Source: Spirochaetota bacterium
Lineage (GTDB): Bacteria > Spirochaetota > UBA4802 > JAFGDQ01
Direction: 5' to 3'
NCBI GenBank assembly: GCA_043803405.1
Contig: JAZDKB010000009.1
Coordinates: 218,265-282,264, forward strand
Length of the DNA stretch: 64,000 bases
In this document: positions 51,361 to 64,000 of the stretch, in pieces
Layout of the letters: the number at the start of each line of letters is the position of its first letter
Numbering within the stretch: position 1 is the first letter of the stretch
Made by a program: the position numbers and the translations under genes
The notes under the pieces: generated by a model
Databases searched by the model: none
Told to the model about the DNA's origin: nothing
Seen by the model: the letters and a program-made list of their open reading frames with translations, nothing else

Positions 51361-52362
51361 ATGAATGATCAATTGACTGAATCACGCGCATTTAAAATTC
51401 CAAATGACGCAAATCTGCTGGAAAGGATGAGGCTTAATATCCGCACAATGCATTACAGTTATAGAACGGAAACGACGTATGTGCACTGGATAAAGCGCTT
51501 TATACTTTACCACAATAAAAGACATCCGAAAGATATGGCAGATAAAGAGATCGCTGAATTTTTAACGCATCTTGCAGTAGATGGCAAGGTATCGGCCTCA
51601 ACTCAGAACCAGGCTATGTGCGCTATTATCTTCCTTTATAAACACATTATTCAAAAAGATATTGGGGAGATAAGCGGATTTGTGTGGGCCAAAAAGCCGA
51701 AAAAAATACCTGTGGTGTTTACCCGCAATGAAGTAAAATCAGTTCTCGGAGAATTATCCGGCAATTACAGGATAATGGCAAGCATGCTTTACGGCGCCGG
51801 GCTGCGGCTGATGGAATGCCTGCGGCTGCGTGTTATGGATATTGTATTTGAAAATTCGCAATTATTTGTGCGCGACGGCAAAGGGCAAAAAGACAGGGTA
51901 ACGCCCTTGCCGGAAATAATTAAGGCTGATTTAAAGAAGCATTTGATTAAAATAAAAGAGCTGCACAACAAAGATTTGAAAGAAGGCTTTGGGGAGGTTT
52001 ATCTTCCATTTGCACTTGAAAGGAAATATCCGAACGCAAAGAAAGAATGGGCATGGCAATATGTGTTCCCTTCATCCAGAATATCCGCGGACCCGAAAAC
52101 CGGAATTATGCGCAGGCATCACCTTGACGAGAGCGTTTTGCAGAAAGCGGTAAAGACTGCAATTATAAAAGCAGGAGTACACAAACATGCCGGCTGTCAT
52201 ACATTCCGGCATTCGTTTGCAACTCATTTACTGGAGGATGGCTATAATATACGCACTGTTCAGGATTTAATGGGTCACGAGGATTTGAATACGACTATGA
52301 TTTATACTCATGTTATGGATAAAGGAATAAACAGGGTTAAAAGCCCGGCAGATAAATTATAA
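51361..52362 (+). CDS. intI: integron integrase (tyrosine recombinase)
   Basis: HYSYRTE.TY..WI, VSASTQNQA, LYGAGLR, GKG.KDR, integron-specific insert VYLPFALERKYPNA..EW.WQYVFPS, HTFRHSFATHLL, MGH, TTMIYTH. Confidence 0.97.
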   Translation: MNDQLTESRAFKIPNDANLLERMRLNIRTMHYSYRTETTYVHWIKRFILYHNKRHPKDMADKEIAEFLTHLAVDGKVSASTQNQAMCAIIFLYKHIIQKDIGEISGFVWAKKPKKIPVVFTRNEVKSVLGELSGNYRIMASMLYGAGLRLMECLRLRVMDIVFENSQLFVRDGKGQKDRVTPLPEIIKADLKKHLIKIKELHNKDLKEGFGEVYLPFALERKYPNAKKEWAWQYVFPSSRISADPKTGIMRRHHLDESVLQKAVKTAIIKAGVHKHAGCHTFRHSFATHLLEDGYNIRTVQDLMGHEDLNTTMIYTHVMDKGINRVKSPADKL

Positions 52363-52369
52363 AATAATT

Positions 52370-52753
52370 ATGAAAATTAAAAGAAAACTAATACCCGGAG
52401 AACCGGGAACAAAGCGCTGGGTTGAAAAGTTCGGCAAAGATTTATTATGCATACGGTACAGATATGATGAGAATCAAAATATTAAATTAACTACTGCTGA
52501 AATAATAGTAAATAAAAATACCTGGGAACGAAATTCCAAAAAAATTCCCCCAAATAAGAAAATGAATATCCGTATTAATTATGAAGAGTCCAGGCTGGCA
52601 GGCATAGTTAAAGCAGCAGGCGGAAGATGGAACAGGCAAAAAAAGCTATGGGAACTTGCCTATAAAGAAGTATTAGCTCTTGGACTTGAAAAAAGGATTG
52701 TAAAATTATCTGATAAAAATAATAAATTCAATAATAAGACAGTAAATTTTTAA
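52370..52753 (+). CDS. basic 127-aa hypothetical protein immediately downstream of intI
   Basis: 7-bp gap after the intI stop; PGEPGTK...L.C.RYRYD and VKAAGGRWN...KLWEL motifs. Confidence 0.8.
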   Translation: MKIKRKLIPGEPGTKRWVEKFGKDLLCIRYRYDENQNIKLTTAEIIVNKNTWERNSKKIPPNKKMNIRINYEESRLAGIVKAAGGRWNRQKKLWELAYKEVLALGLEKRIVKLSDKNNKFNNKTVNF

Positions 52754-52754
52754 T

Positions 52755-52846
52755 ATGTCTATATTTAGACATTCTTTTGTGTCTAATACTAGACATTAGC
52801 ATTAGACATGTCTATGTTTAGACATTTTATGTCTATATATATACAT
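52755..52846. repeat. array of TGTCTA-N4-TAGACA palindromes upstream of attI
   Basis: Copies at 52756, 52780 and 52809, a degenerate copy at 52830, and an extra half-site TAGACA at 52803. Confidence 0.85.
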
Positions 52847-52863
52847 GTATGCGCAACAGAGAT

Positions 52864-52886
52864 TGCAGTATAAGAATATGTTAGGC
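52864..52886 (+). other. putative attI (core G/TTAGGC at 52880-52886)
   Basis: First GTTRRRY after intI; exact complement of GCCTAAC (58685) at the far end of cassette 1; no attC hairpin upstream. Confidence 0.75.
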
Positions 52887-52944
52887 AGTAAATTAATAAT
52901 TATTAAATCAAAAATAGGTTGGATTATTTTTTAAGAAAAATGAG

Positions 52945-55900
52945 ATGTCCTTAAACACAGCACATGAAGGATACGAGTATCAGGATTTATTAACAGCGTA
53001 TTTCATTCTTGATTGGATTCTTGAGGATGTTGAAAGCACTTTCTATATTGATAAAAAAGAATATGATTCTGATAAATTTGATGACTTAACAATTAAGAAT
53101 GATAAAGGTTCCTTTAAAAGACAAATAAAATATAGCAATCTGGAAAGTAACCATTCATTAACAAAAAAGGATTTATCTACAGATAGCTCATATAATTTAG
53201 CAATTGATGAATTATTTACATCATGGCATAATTACCCAGATAAAAATAGTTTAGATGTTAGACTCTGTTTAGCTTGGAATGAACCTGAAGATGATTTATT
53301 AGATGTATTAGAAATAGCTTCGAAGCAAAAAACATTTATTAATCATAACACCTTTCTACATAAAATAAACCCTCATAAATTATGGCCAGAAAATCAAAAA
53401 CCTATTGATACTTGGAGAAGATTCAAAGCTAAATCTGAAAACATTAACCGAGATGATTTTATTGGCTTTTGCAATGTTTTTCTAATTGAAACAAATTTTC
53501 CTAAATTTAGTTTAAATATTGATGAACCAGATAAATTAGAAAAAATTATTTTAGATCAGGTAGACCGTTTAGGCATTGGTATTTTCCCGAACAATAAAAG
53601 AAGTAAAGAGGAGTTTATTCTTTCATTAACTTCCTTAATAAGGAATTCAAGAAGTAAAGGAACTCCCATTACTACTAAAGATATTTTTAAACGATTTGAA
53701 ATAGTCACTGATTTTGGTTCTATTGAGCAAAATTTTCCAATTGATGAAAGTAAAAATATACTTCTTCATGAAAATATCTCATCTTTTATTCAAATAATTA
53801 AACTTAATAAAAAAATAATATTAACAGGAGAACCGGGTAGTGGCAAATCTTGGTTTATTAATAATCTAATTAATGAACTTAAATCAAACAATATCAATGT
53901 AATCCGTCATTATTGTTACACTGACCTTCAAGATAAATTTCAAAAAGATAGAATTCGGAGAGACATTTTTTATGGCAATCTTATTTCTGATACTCTTGCT
54001 TTATATCCTGATCTAATAAGGAAAAAACAGCAAAGATATGCAAGTAACCTAACCGAATTAAATCTGCTAATAAATAATATTGATGAACCAACTATATTGA
54101 TAATTGATGGTCTTGACCATATTCAAAGAATTTTTAATTATAGGCCATATCATGATCTTACTTTAAGTGATATAGATATAGTTAATGAAATAAATAATAT
54201 TAACACTTCTGAAAATTTATTTATCATTGTAGCATCACAACCAATTCAAGAATTAGAAAATATAAAAGAATTTTTTCAAATTTCTTTGCCTTCTTGGACT
54301 ATTGATAATGTAAAAGATTTAATGATTAAACTTTTTCTTGATGATTTGGAGATAGATGAACAAGTTTTATCTGATGTTTTATTTGAAAAAAGTTCTGGGA
54401 ATCCATTATATTTAACATATTTAATTCAGGAACTGAAAACAAAACCTGAAATTACTTTAGATATAATTAATACCCTTCCACCATACTCATATAATTTAAT
54501 AGAATATTATAATTATCTATTATCAAAACTTAATTTAAAAGAAAATGTCCCATTAGTTTTATCAGCAGTTAATTTCAATCTTACAAAACATGAATTAAAA
54601 CAAATTACAGGTCTTGGGGATTTTGTAGATGAATCTTTAAATTTATTAAAACCAGTATTAAAGCAAAATAAAACAAGTAGTGGTTATAGTATTTATCATG
54701 AAAGTTTTCGAAGATTTATTATAGAATATTTAAAATCAAAAGATATTATTGAAGAAAAAATATTTAGACCAGTAATTGACTGGCTTGAAAGTTTAGATTT
54801 TTATACATACCCCAAAGCATATCGATATTATTTACAGTTATTAATAGATAGTGGTGATTCTTTAAAACCTTTAAAATTTATCTCAAAAGATTTTATAAAA
54901 AATTGTGTATATTTTGGACATCCCTGGGAAATTATTGAGAACAATTATTATTTTTTAACCGTAGCTGGGACAGAGTCAGAAGATATTGAAAAAATTATCC
55001 TTCTTAATGAAATAAACAAAACTTTAATAGGGATAAAGGAAGAATATAATGATTATTTTTTATTTTATATTGAAGCATTCGGGCACAATAAAGATTTTGA
55101 ATCTGTTGCGAATTTCTTAGTATTTGAAGGCAATCCTACTTTAGAAAAAAAGCAAGGAATAAGAGTTTGTTATTTAATAGATTCAAATAATAAAGTAGCT
55201 CCTTGGGAATATTATTCTGATTATTTTAAGGAGGGCGAATCTATTGAGTTGGATGATTTCAAATATTATGTTCGGCTATTACTAGTTCAAAATGAAAAAG
55301 AGGCATTAAAAAATATTGCTAAAAATATCAAATCAGGAAATTTAAATGATTTTAGAACCATTTATAAAAATGAATTATCTCGGTATCAAAACATTGATTT
55401 TGTTAATGAATTAAAAAATGAAAATACTATTGTAAATGAATTAATTACTGATGAGATAAATAAAGAGGTTGATAAACAAGATTTAATAAAATTAGCAGAA
55501 GAAATTTTATCTTTTGAAAATGTATTTGATACAGAAGTACCTAAAATTCAAAACTTTTTTAAACAGATTGTAAATCAAATTATAGATAATGATACCATCT
55601 CTAAAGTAATATCGCTATTTTCTGGAATTAATTGGTTTTACAATTGGCTAATTTATTATATTAAGATTCAACAAATTAAATCATCTCAAATAATAAATTC
55701 GGATAAACTCAGATCAGCTTTTGACTTCTTAGCATACAAGACAGAACCGTTTGAGGGTAAGCCAAGAACTTGCGATTTATATTCATTAAATACTTTTATT
55801 TACAACTCATTAAATGATGGACTTTCTTTAATTAAAGATAAAAACGACTGGGAATATATTTTAAAAATATTAGAAAAGGTTAGCACTGAGACAACAACTT

Positions 55901-58602
55901 ATCTATCAAAGTCACCTGGTGGACCAATAGCAACATATAACTTTTTTAAACTTCTTGTTGAAAGCATTAATGAATATAATGCAACTATAGTTAATAAAAT
56001 ATTAGAGAAACAATATGAGGATAAAAAAAGTGATCAGTTTCATGCATATCTTTCTGAATATTGTTTTCAACTAGTCAAAACCTTTGCTTTCATAAATAAT
56101 ATAGAAAAAAGCGACTTTTATTTTAAACTCGGAGTCGATTATTTAGTTGGATATACTTGGCGTCGCGATTTAACCATAGAAGACTTAACTGAAAGTATTG
56201 CTAATTTACATCTTATTAATAATACGCTTGGAAACGAATATATACTAAAGTTGAAAGATTTAGTAGATGCAGTTGTTGAACATACTGATGGAAAGGATAC
56301 AAGGCATTTCCCAATTGAATGGTTTGAGAAATTTTATAGTATAAATCCTGAAAGTGCTTCTCGTTATCTTCTAAAAGAATTGGTCGAGACAAGATGCGAT
56401 TGGAGACTTGAATCATCATTACAGCATTTAATAATGCAATTAAACGTTAAAATTGACTCATTAACTAAATCCTTTCTTAATCAAACATTTTTAATTGAAT
56501 CAGCTGATTCATTCTTACTAGATTCGTTAAGATTATTTGACGAATTAGCTAACCCAACTGCTAAACATACTTTAATTGCTTCAATCGAAGCTAGAATATT
56601 AATAAAACAAAGTTCTGGATATTCTAAAGAACTTCAGAGAGAGCTTTTAAAGCATTCAAAAGAACTAAATTTAGCAGAAGATTATTTTTCTATTCATTCA
56701 ATAATAAATAATAAAAAGACTAATTCTATAAATTTAATAGAAAAGTTAAAAAAAGAATGCATTACTCGAAAGTCGTTCTCCGAAATGAGTACTTCTGAAT
56801 TATTAACGTATTTAAAAGACAATTCAGTTTCAGAAAGAGAAATTCAGTCGTTGGTATATGTATTTGATAATTTTCAAACTTTAAACATTGAATTAAAAGA
56901 TTTAATAAAACATTTAATAATTAAGAATGAAAAATATCCCAACGAAATAAAAATAGATTTAACACCTATATTTATTACTGAAACTGATGTATCAATATAT
57001 TTCTGGATAACTCGATTTATTTATCAAAAGAGTGGATGGCTTGAGAGTCTATTTAATATTGATGCATTTAAAACCGCTTATAAGATTAATCCTGAAAAAA
57101 GTTTAAAATATTTATTTGAGTTATTACCTGATAGTTTGAATTTAGGATATACTCGTACATTTTCTGCCAATTTATTTAATGCCTTATCAAGTGTTGGTTA
57201 TAATTCTTCAATACTTATTAAAGCATGGCTTTCTATGTATGAAATTATTGAATCAAGACTTCCATCAAGGGATATATATAATTGGGAAGCAGCATTTTCA
57301 GATGAATTAGGCATGAATTTAGATGAAATACATATCTGCCTTTTAATATGTAGATTTAAATCTTATACAGTCCAAAAATTTCAGATTGTTTTAACCGGTA
57401 TTGCAATTCTATTGTATAGTGATTCACAAAAACTAATAAAACCGTTAAAATGGTTTTTTAGAAATCATGAGTACTTTAAAAAGTCCATAATCCTGGTAAT
57501 TATAGAATTATTATCATTACACGAAGAAAAAAATGTTGGTTATGTAAAAAATTTTGAATCAGAGCTAAGAAATATTTATCCAACAGAGTATTTCTTAATT
57601 GATTATTTAATAGAATCATTATTTAACTTATCCAATCGTTTAAAAATAAAATTAAATAACGAATTAATATACCCTATTCCGGATGAAGAGGCAGATTTTT
57701 TCTTAAGATTAAATTATCGGCATCGCATCTTAGAAAGAAAGGGATTAAACATTAATAATATCTTTGGGAAATTTAAGGCGACATTTTCTAGAAAGTATAA
57801 AGAAGCTCTTGATCTGTATGGGAATAGAATGCGTGAGTGGTCAGTAAATAACCTTTATTTTTCAGACTATTTACTTGAATTGATTAATGAAGATTTCTAT
57901 AATGCTTTTAAAAGTTATCCTGATTCTAATTTAGTTTATAATGACATTAAGATCGATATTAAAACTATAATTGCTCAGTATTTATCTTTAAATACTAGGC
58001 CTAAAGATTTAAAAAAATATTCAGAATATGAGGGAAATGGTTTATATACTTCCACTTCAGAAATCTCAATTAATGAAGGATGGGTAAGAATAGGTCATTT
58101 TGAAAATGAATTAGTTGAAAAAGAACATTATAAACTCGAAAACTATAAAATATTTGGTGGAATAACTTTTAATTCTGATAATAAACCAATTTTTCCATTC
58201 TCTACTTATCGTTTGGACATGCCTAAAATATGGGAAAATATTTACCCTGATTATGAAAATCAAGAAACAATTGTATTTTCCTTAATTCAAAAGCAATTTC
58301 AATTTGAAGATTTCAAAATACTTTGGTTAAATCCTATTTTAGTTTCTAACTTTAAACTTAATGTTTGCAATTTTTTGTCAGGCTTACGGGCCACTAACGA
58401 TAATGGAGAAATTATTTTAAAATTTAATTCATGGTATACTAGCTATATTGCTTCCGATCGTATGGATGATATTATACAAGAAATACCAAAATTAGATGGT
58501 TCTGAATTATTAATACGCGAAGATTACTTTAAGAAAATTTGTGATTTATATAGTGTATCCCCTAAATATTGTATTATGCGTACGTTTAAAAATTCATCAT
58601 AA
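52945..58602 (+). CDS. cassette 1: PD-(D/E)xK nuclease + STAND NTPase + long helical sensor region (Avs/AVAST-like antiphage protein)
   Basis: GYEYQD...FDD...QIK nuclease motif, Walker A GEPGSGKS, Walker B LIIDGLD, GNPLYL; 1885 aa; AT-rich. Confidence 0.8.
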   Translation: MSLNTAHEGYEYQDLLTAYFILDWILEDVESTFYIDKKEYDSDKFDDLTIKNDKGSFKRQIKYSNLESNHSLTKKDLSTDSSYNLAIDELFTSWHNYPDKNSLDVRLCLAWNEPEDDLLDVLEIASKQKTFINHNTFLHKINPHKLWPENQKPIDTWRRFKAKSENINRDDFIGFCNVFLIETNFPKFSLNIDEPDKLEKIILDQVDRLGIGIFPNNKRSKEEFILSLTSLIRNSRSKGTPITTKDIFKRFEIVTDFGSIEQNFPIDESKNILLHENISSFIQIIKLNKKIILTGEPGSGKSWFINNLINELKSNNINVIRHYCYTDLQDKFQKDRIRRDIFYGNLISDTLALYPDLIRKKQQRYASNLTELNLLINNIDEPTILIIDGLDHIQRIFNYRPYHDLTLSDIDIVNEINNINTSENLFIIVASQPIQELENIKEFFQISLPSWTIDNVKDLMIKLFLDDLEIDEQVLSDVLFEKSSGNPLYLTYLIQELKTKPEITLDIINTLPPYSYNLIEYYNYLLSKLNLKENVPLVLSAVNFNLTKHELKQITGLGDFVDESLNLLKPVLKQNKTSSGYSIYHESFRRFIIEYLKSKDIIEEKIFRPVIDWLESLDFYTYPKAYRYYLQLLIDSGDSLKPLKFISKDFIKNCVYFGHPWEIIENNYYFLTVAGTESEDIEKIILLNEINKTLIGIKEEYNDYFLFYIEAFGHNKDFESVANFLVFEGNPTLEKKQGIRVCYLIDSNNKVAPWEYYSDYFKEGESIELDDFKYYVRLLLVQNEKEALKNIAKNIKSGNLNDFRTIYKNELSRYQNIDFVNELKNENTIVNELITDEINKEVDKQDLIKLAEEILSFENVFDTEVPKIQNFFKQIVNQIIDNDTISKVISLFSGINWFYNWLIYYIKIQQIKSSQIINSDKLRSAFDFLAYKTEPFEGKPRTCDLYSLNTFIYNSLNDGLSLIKDKNDWEYILKILEKVSTETTTYLSKSPGGPIATYNFFKLLVESINEYNATIVNKILEKQYEDKKSDQFHAYLSEYCFQLVKTFAFINNIEKSDFYFKLGVDYLVGYTWRRDLTIEDLTESIANLHLINNTLGNEYILKLKDLVDAVVEHTDGKDTRHFPIEWFEKFYSINPESASRYLLKELVETRCDWRLESSLQHLIMQLNVKIDSLTKSFLNQTFLIESADSFLLDSLRLFDELANPTAKHTLIASIEARILIKQSSGYSKELQRELLKHSKELNLAEDYFSIHSIINNKKTNSINLIEKLKKECITRKSFSEMSTSELLTYLKDNSVSEREIQSLVYVFDNFQTLNIELKDLIKHLIIKNEKYPNEIKIDLTPIFITETDVSIYFWITRFIYQKSGWLESLFNIDAFKTAYKINPEKSLKYLFELLPDSLNLGYTRTFSANLFNALSSVGYNSSILIKAWLSMYEIIESRLPSRDIYNWEAAFSDELGMNLDEIHICLLICRFKSYTVQKFQIVLTGIAILLYSDSQKLIKPLKWFFRNHEYFKKSIILVIIELLSLHEEKNVGYVKNFESELRNIYPTEYFLIDYLIESLFNLSNRLKIKLNNELIYPIPDEEADFFLRLNYRHRILERKGLNINNIFGKFKATFSRKYKEALDLYGNRMREWSVNNLYFSDYLLELINEDFYNAFKSYPDSNLVYNDIKIDIKTIIAQYLSLNTRPKDLKKYSEYEGNGLYTSTSEISINEGWVRIGHFENELVEKEHYKLENYKIFGGITFNSDNKPIFPFSTYRLDMPKIWENIYPDYENQETIVFSLIQKQFQFEDFKILWLNPILVSNFKLNVCNFLSGLRATNDNGEIILKFNSWYTSYIASDRMDDIIQEIPKLDGSELLIREDYFKKICDLYSVSPKYCIMRTFKNSS

Positions 58603-58684: not shown

Positions 58685-58706
58685 GCCTAACAATAAAATC
58701 GAGCCA
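58685..58706 (+). other. attC1 left arm (R''/L''), interrupted by the intron
   Basis: GCCTAAC AATAAAATCGAGCCA pairs with the arm at 60886-60989 once the intron is removed. Confidence 0.8.
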
Positions 58707-60885
58707 TTGAGCCATGAGTCGTTTAGAGTCAATTGTTAACCCTGCGAGAGCAGAGAGTTAACCTGTCGTACTGCCGACAGTTTCTCACCTGCCGAGAGGC
58801 AGTGCAATGTAGCCCTTGCCCGATATAATCGGACAAAAGAGCGAAGCGCGAGCGGAACTCAATTCCCGTTAGTACCATACGGGAGGGGAGCTAAGAATGA
58901 TGATACGGTTAAGATATATGAATTGCCGATAAACGCCGTTAATTTTAACAAGCGAAAGGATACTGAATGCTTAAAAGCATAAACGCTTGAACCAAAAGGT
59001 AAGGGGTATGGATGGGATGGTGGGCTTTCGTCCTACGCAGACAACAATTCCCCCGGCGAACAGGTAGAACCTAAGTCATCAAGTTGAGTTAAAGGACTAT
59101 GGAAACCCCGACTGCCTCCACAGGAAGTGGAAAGCGAGCAGTAATGCGAGCCGATAGGCAAGCGGAGGAAGTGATGTCGGAAAAAGCGAAAGCCGTTCTG
59201 TAATGGAGCGGATACGGGTTCAAGATTTGCCCGACTCGAAAGAGGGCAGACATCCGACGGGTGCTGGATCACGGGAGAGATTTTGGAAAAGATGAAATCG
59301 GAAAGGCGTGGATAGACGATGGTTGGAATACTGACCATTGACAGCCCAAAGAGCGATAGTGAGTGCTGGAAACATATTGACTGGAAGAAAGCGGAAGCTA
59401 TTGTTAATCGGATTCAAGTCAGGATCGTGAAGGCAATCAAGGCAGGGAACAAGAATAAAGTACGTAGCTTACAGCGACTCCTTGCCAGATCATTTGCAGC
59501 AAAGTTAAAAGCTGTTAAGCGAATAATATCAAATCGTGGAAGAAATACAGCGGGAGTAGACGGAGTAAAGTGGAACACACCCGCGAAACGTTGGAAAGCA
59601 GTCGAAGAGATAAATCGTAAGGACTACAAGCCGCAGCCCTTAAAACGTAAATATATACCGAAGTCAAATGGCAAGAAACGACCTTTAAGTATACCTGTTA
59701 TGGCAGACCGGGCAGAACAGGCACTTGAACAATCAGGGCTTGATCCGATAAGCGAATACACAGCGGATAAACATTCATATGGTTTTCGCAAGAAACGGTC
59801 AGTACATGACGCGATCGGCGCTTGTTACAATGCCTTAAGAAAGAAAGGAAGCGCAGACTGGATACTTGAAGGAGATATAAAAGGCTGTTTTGACAATTTT
59901 GATCATCAGTGGATGCTGGAAAATATCCCGATGAACAAGAACAAATTAAGGATGTGGCTTAAAGCCGGATACATGGAAGAAGGGAGTTATTACCCTACTC
60001 CAACAGGAACGCCGCAAGGAGGAATAATATCACCGATACTGGCGAACATGGTTTTAGATGGACTGGAAACTTTTTTAGCAAAGCATTTCAAAAAGAGAGA
60101 TAAAGTACACTTTATCAGGTTTGCCGATGACTTTGTTATCACAGGTGCAACTAAAAGAATTTTGGAAGATAAAGTCATGCCATTGGTGAAGGAATTCCTA
60201 AGAGTACGCGGGCTTGAATTATCAGAAACGAAAACGAAGATATCACATATAAATGATGGATTCGATTTTCTTGGATTCTCTGTTAAGAAATACAAAGGGA
60301 AACTTTTGATAAAACCGGCAAAGTCTAAAGTAGACGGGTTTATTGAAAAGATCAGACAAATAATAAAGTCTAACAAAAGTGTAAAGACCCGGAGTCTGAT
60401 CTATCAGTTAAATCCAGTAATACGAGGATGGGGATATTTCTATCGGCACGTGGTAAGCAGTCAAATATTTGGTGAACTGGATCATCGGATATGGGAAACC
60501 ACATGGCAATGGGCAAAGAGAAGACATCCGAACAAAGGTAAACAGTGGATCAAACGGAAATATTACCAGCATGAAGGAAACAGAAACTGGATTTTCCGTG
60601 AGAAGAATGACAAGATGAGTCTTCTCTTACTGTCGAAAATTCACATCATCCGACATGTTAAGATACAATCCAACGCCAATCCTTATGATCCGGATTGGGA
60701 CGAATATTTCAAGAGTAGATCTCTGAGACAGAAAGGAATCTTCGATCAGAGACTAGCGACAGCGATTTGATAAGATTGCCGGGTGTTTAACGATGCCTTA
60801 GCCAGGGCTTGAGCCGTACCTTTGGAAACAAGGTTGTACGGTTCTTAGGGGGCGACGGTGCGGTAACGCACCTGACCTACCCGGA
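58707..60885 (+). mobile_element. group II intron (IIB, CL-type RT without En domain) inserted in attC1; boundaries may be off by 1 nt
   Basis: Domain V GAGCCGTAC-CTTTG-GAAA-CAAGG-TT-GTACGGTTC (60811-60844); domain VI with bulged A at 60879; RT ORF inside; removal restores an attC. Confidence 0.88.
59319..60770 (+). CDS. ltrA: group II intron reverse transcriptase/maturase
   Basis: RVT_N-type WKHIDW...R.Q.RI.KA, IPK.NGK.RPL.IP, EGDIKGCFD, GTPQGGIISP, RFADDF, GFDFLG, X domain LNPVIRGW; no HNH. Confidence 0.93.
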   Translation: MVGILTIDSPKSDSECWKHIDWKKAEAIVNRIQVRIVKAIKAGNKNKVRSLQRLLARSFAAKLKAVKRIISNRGRNTAGVDGVKWNTPAKRWKAVEEINRKDYKPQPLKRKYIPKSNGKKRPLSIPVMADRAEQALEQSGLDPISEYTADKHSYGFRKKRSVHDAIGACYNALRKKGSADWILEGDIKGCFDNFDHQWMLENIPMNKNKLRMWLKAGYMEEGSYYPTPTGTPQGGIISPILANMVLDGLETFLAKHFKKRDKVHFIRFADDFVITGATKRILEDKVMPLVKEFLRVRGLELSETKTKISHINDGFDFLGFSVKKYKGKLLIKPAKSKVDGFIEKIRQIIKSNKSVKTRSLIYQLNPVIRGWGYFYRHVVSSQIFGELDHRIWETTWQWAKRRHPNKGKQWIKRKYYQHEGNRNWIFREKNDKMSLLLLSKIHIIRHVKIQSNANPYDPDWDEYFKSRSLRQKGIFDQRLATAI

Positions 60886-60989
60886 GATGCGAACCGCAAT
60901 CAAGCGACATTTTTATTGTGCCCCTAATATCGCGCTCAATTTTTCGGAAGTCGGCGTCGCGGTTCGCACTGCTCATTTTGTCGTTAGAA
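60886..60989 (+). other. attC1 remainder, ending in R' GTTAGAA
   Basis: TGCGAACCGC...GCGGTTCGCA CTG CTC ATTTT GTC GTTAGAA. Confidence 0.8.
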
Positions 60990-61441: not shown

Positions 61442-61572
61442 TTCTAACATTGGCTGCAGCCTGATTTTTACTCGCGTTTTTTTGTTTAAGTATGTGAATG
61501 CAAGTTGTAAGTCGTAATGTTTTTGAATACCTTTGCTAGTACCCGTAAAAACAGCTGAGCCTTTAGTTAGGT
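61442..61572 (+). other. attC2 (131 bp)
   Basis: TTCTAAC...GTTAGGT; arms GGCT-g-CAG-c-CTG-a-TTTTTAC / GTAAAAA-CAG-CTG-AGCC. Confidence 0.9.
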
Positions 61573-61598
61573 GAGTAACAAATTTTTTAAGAAAAATT

Positions 61599-63112: not shown

Positions 63113-63245
63113 ACCTAACATTTGTTCCAGTCTGATTCTTGCTCGCGTTTTTTCTGTTTCAATCAGTCAATGCGAGTTTTAAAATCAGTTAGTTTTTGAA
63201 TGCCGTTGCCAGTACCCGCAAGAACAGCTGAACATTTAGTTAGAT
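63113..63245 (+). other. attC3 (133 bp)
   Basis: ACCTAAC...GTTAGAT; arms TGTT-c-CAG-t-CTG-a-TTCTTGC / GCAAGAA-CAG-CTG-AACA; clearly homologous to attC2. Confidence 0.9.
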
Positions 63246-63852: not shown

Positions 63853-63858
63853 ATCAAA

Positions 63859-63917
63859 ACCTAACAATAAAGGATAGAGACGATCGTTTTTTGATCGTAC
63901 TCTATCCAATGTTCAAG
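63859..63917 (+). other. atypical or degenerate attC4
   Basis: ACCTAAC 6 bp after the stop, then hairpin GGATAGAGACGATC...GATCGTACTCTATCC and GTTCAAG (not GTTRRRY). Confidence 0.4.
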
Positions 63918-64000
63918 AAGCCCGACTAAGAAGATATTTTGTCTATAAGGGTAAAGATACGGTGTTTATTTGGAGGGCAGATTAATAGATCAGGGGAAAA

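Follow-up and report, generated by a model that had tools for sequence, protein, structure and literature searches.

A natural IIB1 group II intron with UUGAG...GA ends and paired changes at known splicing contacts, inserted in an integron attC site

RmInt1, alongside TeI4h and UHB.I2, is a known exception to the GUGYG...AY boundary consensus of group II introns. The IIB1 intron TeI4h (T.el4h) of Thermosynechococcus elongatus and EcI5 are among the closest known introns to the one described here, and the TeI4h IEP is the closest of solved structure. According to the open text on TeI4h, its U1 start is used and favoured, and a T1G change lowers mobility (PMC2882425). The gamma-gamma' and first/penultimate contacts are described in the available part of PMC4238363 with reference to Jacquier and Michel 1990 and to Chanfreau and Jacquier 1993, and gamma and bulge dynamics are described in the accessible text of PMC6224600 and PMC7275048. 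In the structure of Gdi-1, as given in the available text, nucleotide 1, the penultimate base, gamma-gamma' and the bulge are linked by a network that comprises G209-penultimate A, G210-U83 and the phosphate of bulged C84; there, a U134A-A722U swap, which gives a terminal A and a gamma U, had an activity equal to that of the wild type (PMC13717195).

Integron attC sites are known targets of IIC-attC introns such as S.ma.I2 and Ge.s.I1. According to the open text of PMC7923331, these carry a class C IEP and a CGC triad and insert in the bottom strand at TTGT/T in the opposite orientation, a hairpin replacing IBS2. Only IIC introns are named at attC in the available text of PMC4424553 and PMC8876359, and attC is unmentioned in that of PMC8919778 and PMC12584367. 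Introns without an En domain use replication-fork primers (PMC4424553, available text). In the open literature we found no description of a natural UUGAG...GA lineage, and in the open text of the same literature none of a IIB clade inserted at attC L''+2 via EBS pairing; subscription papers, the intron database and figures may hold records.

Boundaries and parts of the intron

The window (the whole analysed stretch of 64,000 nucleotides) contains a group II intron of 2,179 nt at 58707-60885 on the plus strand, with a IIB1 ribozyme, a CL1 IEP and the ends UUGAG...GA in place of GUGYG...AY. It splits attC1 of an integron with the following features.

51361..52362, plus strand: integron integrase gene (TIGR02249, 453.6 bits, cut-off 265)
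52945..58602, plus strand: cassette gene for a 1,885-aa NACHT/STAND-like NTPase, whose attC is split by the intron (weak Avs1b match, far under the cut-off)
58685..58706, plus strand: left part of attC1 (R'', L'' plus 2 nt), the 5' exon, from the rebuild
60886..60989, plus strand: right part of attC1 (L', R'), the 3' exon, from the rebuild
61443..61573, plus strand: attC2, uninterrupted, with the L''-C-NG-A pattern (motif and fold)
63113..63245, plus strand: attC3, uninterrupted, with the L''-C-NG-A pattern (motif and fold)

Without 58707-60885, attC1 is rebuilt at a length of 126 nt; its bottom strand gives a fold of -25.3 kcal/mol with the extrahelical-base pattern of attC2 and attC3. The site combines the R''/L''/L'/R' boxes, a bottom-strand hairpin with extrahelical bases and a nearby intI. 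The insertion point lies 22 nt into attC1 on the top strand, two bases past L'', and the intron is sense to the cassettes.

Several further elements were observed around this array. Downstream of the intI gene, which has cassette orientation, comes a 127-aa ORF without a known family (51361-52890), and short repeats at 52760-52850 with a GTTAGGC core at about 52881 represent a possible attI. A fourth attC-like left arm starts at about 63860 (63858-64000), and the contig stops before a clear right arm. The 1,885-aa NTPase is, from its sequence, a possible defence gene; PADLOC gave no hits for the five proteins submitted, this one included.

The intron itself has the following parts.

58707..58711, plus strand: 5' end U1-U2-G3-A4-G5, with covariation of U1 and the penultimate G and with A4 lacking an epsilon' partner
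58712..59102, plus strand: domain I; basal stem CCAUG (58712-16)/UAUGG (59098-102), from nt 6 as in relatives
58812..58813, plus strand: putative epsilon' (GC), the same as in canonical relatives; we take these bases to be epsilon' from the IIB consensus
58941..58947, plus strand: EBS2, pairing with exon positions -13..-8 (4/6 in the relatives' register, 58941-46; 6/6 one base 3', 58942-47)
59021..59027, plus strand: delta U59021 and EBS1 GGGCUU (59022-27), with 5/6 pairs to IBS1 GAGCCA
59072, plus strand: putative EBS3 U, a tentative candidate that would wobble with G60886
59172..59174, plus strand: J2/3 UGA with gamma = U59172 (motif position, comparison with relatives)
59175..59259, plus strand: domain III (sequence and fold)
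59319..60770, plus strand: IEP ORF of 483 aa (RVT_N, RVT_1 and GIIM, FADD active-site motif, no HNH)
60811..60844, plus strand: domain V, with AGC triad (60812-14), GAAA loop (60825-28) and UU bulge (60834-35)
60849..60885, plus strand: domain VI, with branch A60879, penultimate G60884 and gamma' A60885

The ends were placed concordantly by the attC rebuild, the EBS1/EBS2 pairing and the domain I stem. At the proposed 5' junction, EBS1 and EBS2 formed 5+6 pairs (EBS2 one base 3' of the relatives' register), with a G.A mismatch between EBS1 and exon position -1, whereas shifts of -1, +1, -2 and +2 left 3+3, 4+3, 2+3 and 3+2 pairs. The fold of the first 564 nt of the intron beat 100/100 shuffles (z -3.1), and its basal stem was closed from nt 6. 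The motifs listed in an earlier note on this DNA were found at the positions claimed: 5' TTGAG at 58707-58711; 3' CTACCCGGA at 60877-60885, with branch A60879 as the seventh base from the 3' end, aligning with relatives; TGA at J2/3 (59172-59174), where the consensus has RGA; and the AGC triad, GAAA loop and TT bulge (60834-60835) of domain V. Alignment to Rfam covariance models agreed with this reading. Domain I matched RF02012 with 53.1 bits, above gathering, and domains V-VI matched RF00029 with 38.9 bits (E 1.6e-5), narrowly missing its gathering threshold of 40; introns of this kind thus slip under a standard detection threshold. We also observed that GAGCCAT occurs twice within 58700-58723, as exon end and as intron start, so that the intron's 5' end looks like its own IBS1.

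The comparison with homologues pointed the same way, since the related loci L096, L097 and L003 share the 3' end CTACCCGGA and do not have canonical ends. The next letter is A after the GGA end in L096 and L097, and GAT follows the end in L003; a UU start follows an attC-like left arm in L096, L002, L003 and L009. These shared ends and starts argue that the window intron is not a misassembly. The 5' junction was spanned by public contig X2 record 9 and the 3' junction by public contig X1 record 7, matches that bear on continuity across the junctions and not on the letters at them, and a contig from an RNA library matched 59075-59309 with one difference. No joint skipping the intron and no empty allele was seen in four public runs; as all of these consist of assembled contigs, the absence of a skipping joint says nothing on splicing. 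The genome contains one full copy of the intron.

Covariation of the end bases and the domain V bulge

We compared the window intron with 159 loci picked by protein similarity (at 147 loci the start of the IEP was near-complete). For 103 loci, counted with near-identical kin uncollapsed and hence not independent, there was a call for gamma as well as for the last base: G-C in 88, A-U in 7, U-A in 4 and other combinations in 4. Watson-Crick pairs accounted for 99/103 of these raw calls and for 103/103 after correction (G-C 92, A-U 7, U-A 4), since L017-L019 and L050 are regex miscalls that read GGA by eye and pair. In the window the pair is U59172-A60885. The proposal that gamma U and terminal A form a true compensatory pair is thus borne out.

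Calls for the first as well as the penultimate base were available at 85 loci, with a 5' regex that took only xUGYGAC and two known variant starts and left other odd starts outside the count: G-A occurred in 67, C-G in 8, U-G in 6 and A-G in 2, and 2 were miscalls (L019, L163). A rule of G1 with A and any other first base with G held in 83/85 raw and 85/85 corrected cases. U1 of the window intron accordingly covaries with its penultimate G, which is the known first/penultimate contact, a link absent from the earlier note. U1 or C1 with penultimate G was also found alongside a canonical gamma G-C. L096 and L097 share the GGA end, the gamma U (J2/3 UGA) and the UU bulge with the window intron. 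At the level of sequence, these paired changes confirm contacts that were already known, and they confirm the intron as a natural variant of a known RNA machine in which the end letters are swapped and the internal letters predicted to contact them changed in step. The earlier reading as a functional variant rather than decay holds insofar as the pattern belongs to a lineage and not to one decayed copy, while function we only infer.

The domain V bulge behaved differently from the gamma pair. Among 119 loci with both calls, UU occurred in 4/5 A-ended loci versus 0/114 others. Of 44 loci selected for an A end, 7 were set aside because a canonical end came earlier, and 3 as duplicates; the bulges of the remaining 34 were UU (12), AC (6), AU (4), AA (4), UC (4), CU (2), GC (1) and GU (1). 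A pyrimidine was the first bulge base in 18/34 of these selected loci versus 7/114. The bulge is variable in the class, where AC, AU, AA, UC and CC also occur. Conversely, 57 loci selected for a UU bulge had C or U as the last base in 42 cases and A in 11, with 4 uncalled. L245, L252, L257 and L273, from one Chlamydiales record, are near-identical GUGCG...GAA introns with gamma U and an AC bulge, and one genome has these four copies at separate sites, an indication that A-ended introns move and can do without UU. We therefore rejected strict compensation by the UU bulge, and of the earlier claim of compensated changes the gamma U-A part survived and the bulge part did not. From these sequence counts, the UU bulge is associated with the A end and is not obligatory. 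An A-end pattern scan of viral contigs gave no match.

UU bulges with canonical ends were also seen in the L175-L231 loci (Pasteurellaceae, Rheinheimera and others); many of these introns have a terminator-like hairpin behind them, which is not usual for CL1 introns. On the record of L063, L234 is a UUGCG...GGA intron with J2/3 UCA, in which the conserved G is altered.

Other positions of the window intron lack a partner change. A4 was found among 101 called starts only in the window and L096 (one more TTGAG was a miscall), and it is not accompanied by a compensating epsilon' change, the candidate epsilon' staying GC. With epsilon' placed from the IIB consensus, a G3-C pair is possible and A4.G is a mismatch; an epsilon-epsilon' mismatch also occurs in 7/53 canonical loci. 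The Rfam line GUUUCUCA was considered as a compensated epsilon' and rejected, since a similar GUUU-rich sequence exists in canonical relatives and the candidate is still GC. Unusual C-G pairs flank the UU bulge on both sides: the pair just below it is C-G in the window (1/121) and U.G in 118/121, and the pair just above is C-G in the window (1/121) and G-C in 119/121. A4 and these flanking pairs could reflect relaxation or further rewiring.

Target sites and the IEP lineage

Targeting was compared in the 13 introns of the clade whose 5' junction and EBS loops could both be read. In 11/13, the junction lies 14-16 nt after YAAY; the exceptions, L016 and L021, are not in attC, L018 is doubtful, and the attC status of relatives was judged by motifs and inspection, with a convincing fold only for the window and L020. 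EBS1 plus EBS2 matched their own site at a mean of 10.3/12 positions in the 13 introns, compared with 6.7 in 150 cross combinations, and delta U was constant in 13/13. Homing of the ordinary IIB kind into a box that is repeated and semi-conserved would account for this pattern, with no need for hairpin recognition. The window-type 5' junction pattern was found at one locus, a 5' remnant that was not counted as independent.

Crude regex scans of the genome for other empty attC sites gave one site (on C10) and 13 candidates, mostly unconvincing; the site, on the minus strand of G000:C10, is a further uninterrupted attC-like site that keeps the L''-CCT-GA reading. The clade member L016 is apparently inserted in domain V of a different group II intron, on its antisense strand. 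A second attC-linked set (L244, L253, L259, L263), mostly ORF-less, is inserted just past GTTA of R' and has UU starts and GGA ends; its bulge is UU or UC, and gamma, where readable, is U. This set may be of the UHB.I2 type. L008 (G000:C2:1-535) is an ORF-less partial intron, 86% identical to domains I-III of the window intron, with gamma U facing a U end (GGU or GGUA). Its domain IV resembles the ORF-less family L004 and L010, and its domain V has a long loop insertion and a UU bulge; judged by sequence likeness it is possibly a chimera. An attC-like site and ORFs that by eye look toxin-antitoxin-like lie 3' of it.

The IEP, encoded in domain IV, passes the TIGR04416 cut-off, its ORF is intact and the domain search found no HNH (endonuclease) domain. 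Its best match of solved structure was 6ME0 chain C (513 bits, E 6e-153; IIC RTs at most 134 bits), which is the T.el4h IEP. The CL1 assignment follows from TIGR04416 together with this match. FADD in place of YADD was common to 9/22 aligned proteins. Relatives of 73-91% identity exist, and L096 and L097 are 66% and 64% identical to the window IEP; plasmid records held only relatives below 60% identity, and a single-protein scan of genome contigs gave no match. In the public contigs, 24/32 listed ORF differences fell at third codon positions. L002, L003 and L009 are intron remnants; that of L003, whose genome belongs to the window's genus, has a mutated catalytic triad.

A FastTree phylogeny of 128/187 IEPs, thinned by similarity and midpoint-rooted, placed the window IEP with P0002-P0008 (support 1.0) and then with L096, L097 and P0011 (0.948). 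P0002-P0008, the closest IEPs, entered as proteins only, and the end comparison covers DNA of other loci. The group of the window, P0002-P0008, L096, L097 and P0011 was nested among C- or U-ended relatives (0.867, 0.809). Other introns with gamma U and an A end (L160 with L245, L237, L263) lay elsewhere on the tree, which suggests several origins.

Explanations and comparison with described introns

That the boundaries are one base off or the copy misassembled, with true ends nearer the consensus, is very improbable: A58706 and A60885 would permit both ends to slide by one base and GAGCCAT is duplicated around the 5' junction, but EBS pairing drops at every shift, the domain I stem begins at nt 6, the branch A is seventh from the end as in relatives, L096 and L097 end in GGA before A and L003 before GAT, and public contigs span both junctions. 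A slow or dead ribozyme at a non-coding site, under weak selection for splicing, would instead make the changes drift in a low-activity element. The uncompensated A4 (and C3, A4 and A5 of L096), the rare domain V pairs, FADD for YADD, the single full copy, the remnants among relatives and the ORF-less partial copy L008 on C2, whose gamma U faces a U end, fit this account. We nevertheless consider it quite unlikely, since the changes pair exactly, the intact ORF differs mostly at third positions, FADD recurs among the aligned proteins and the EBS sequences track each copy's own site. The window intron is a real and, as judged from these sequences, most likely functional variant of a known ribozyme class.

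U1, gamma U, terminal GA and the UU bulge might form one obligatory compensation set. The skew of UU and of pyrimidines in the first bulge position towards A-ended loci speaks for such full coupling, as does the recurrence of the combination in the apparently separate introns L244, L253 and L160, and the available text on the Gdi-1 structure joins these positions (PMC13717195). It is unlikely all the same, given the C or U end of 42/57 UU-selected loci, the G1, gamma U, A end and AC bulge of the four-copy L245 family, the occurrence of U1/C1 and penultimate G with canonical gamma G-C, and the kinship among loci that are not independent. Targeting, finally, might work through DNA structure, the attC hairpin being recognised in IIC-attC style rather than by extended base pairing. 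The position within attC is constant, L016 lies in another hairpin-forming sequence, and Sonbol and Siam speculated, in the open text of PMC7923331, on a role of a top-strand hairpin. Yet EBS1 and EBS2 are both present and covary with each site, and the insertion is in the top strand within the left arm, not in the bottom strand past the stem, making hairpin targeting improbable.

We consider it probable that the intron is an En-less CL1/IIB1 retroelement of a small lineage in which second-step contacts were rewired in pairs. Ends, covariation, attC position and the intact ORF are the directly supported parts. Given its sense orientation, the intron would be transcribed with the cassette array. 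In splicing, the branch would form between A60879 and U1, the gamma pair U59172-A60885 would define the 3' site, and U1.G60884 would take the place of the G1.A contact; splicing would also keep the array transcript continuous. The lariat-IEP particle would reverse-splice into the top strand of attC, two bases past L'', recognising its target by ordinary EBS1/EBS2 pairing with the semi-conserved L'' box, and since the intron is without En, copying would be primed at the replication fork. The 2.2-kb insert parts the arms of attC1 and, from general integron biology, should hamper excision of the upstream cassette. The UU bulge would be tolerated, favouring the U-A pair or going along with it, and neither needed nor sufficient, and A4 would be a relaxed position. 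Points against this explanation are A4.G (epsilon-epsilon'), G.A (EBS1/-1), the rare bulge-flanking pairs, the one full copy, the remnant relatives L002, L003 and L009, and the location of L016 and L021 outside attC.

More tentatively, these introns may belong to an undescribed "IIB-attC" CL1 clade that homes into the L'' arm by pairing and freezes cassettes, with the second-step network rewired there and, by convergence, in further CL1 lineages (U1.G, gamma U-A, pyrimidine bulge, nt-4 epsilon loss), yielding a natural UU...GA-ended ribozyme whose bulge is coupled in function to the gamma pair; we hold this broader proposal to be possible rather than probable. Pairing of a IIB clade with the L'' box on the top strand would be a second route for introns into integron sites and may lock cassettes. 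The substitutions that occur here naturally and in pairs, at the first/penultimate and the gamma-gamma' contact, fall within one structural network of a recent structure, the association of the domain V bulge with these contacts is testable, and the first/last-base contact and the bulge have parallels in the spliceosome.

Among described systems, the Gdi-1 swap is an engineered mutant of a circularly permuted intron, whereas that of the window is natural and in a normally ordered one. TeI4h carries an En domain, its homing site is a tRNA gene, and its open text reports neither a terminal A nor a gamma U nor an attC target (PMC2882425); the window intron is En-less and lies in an attC. UHB.I2, compared here by its description in the available text, its IEP being outside the tree, is similar in being CL1/IIB1, En-minus, in cassette orientation and of the type UUGCG..GU, i.e. 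with U1 and penultimate G (PMC7923331). In contrast to the window intron, it lies directly after attC and not within the left arm, has U as its last base and retains C4, and it is presented there as a single example with no targeting rule. Like the window intron, the IIC-attC introns are En-minus and target integron attC sites. The window intron, however, shows none of their class C IEP, CGC triad and bottom-strand TTGT/T insertion; it has a CL1 IEP and an AGC triad and lies on the top strand at L''+2, with EBS1 and EBS2. Each single change has a precedent, and the attC-arm clade and the bulge association may be the parts that are new.
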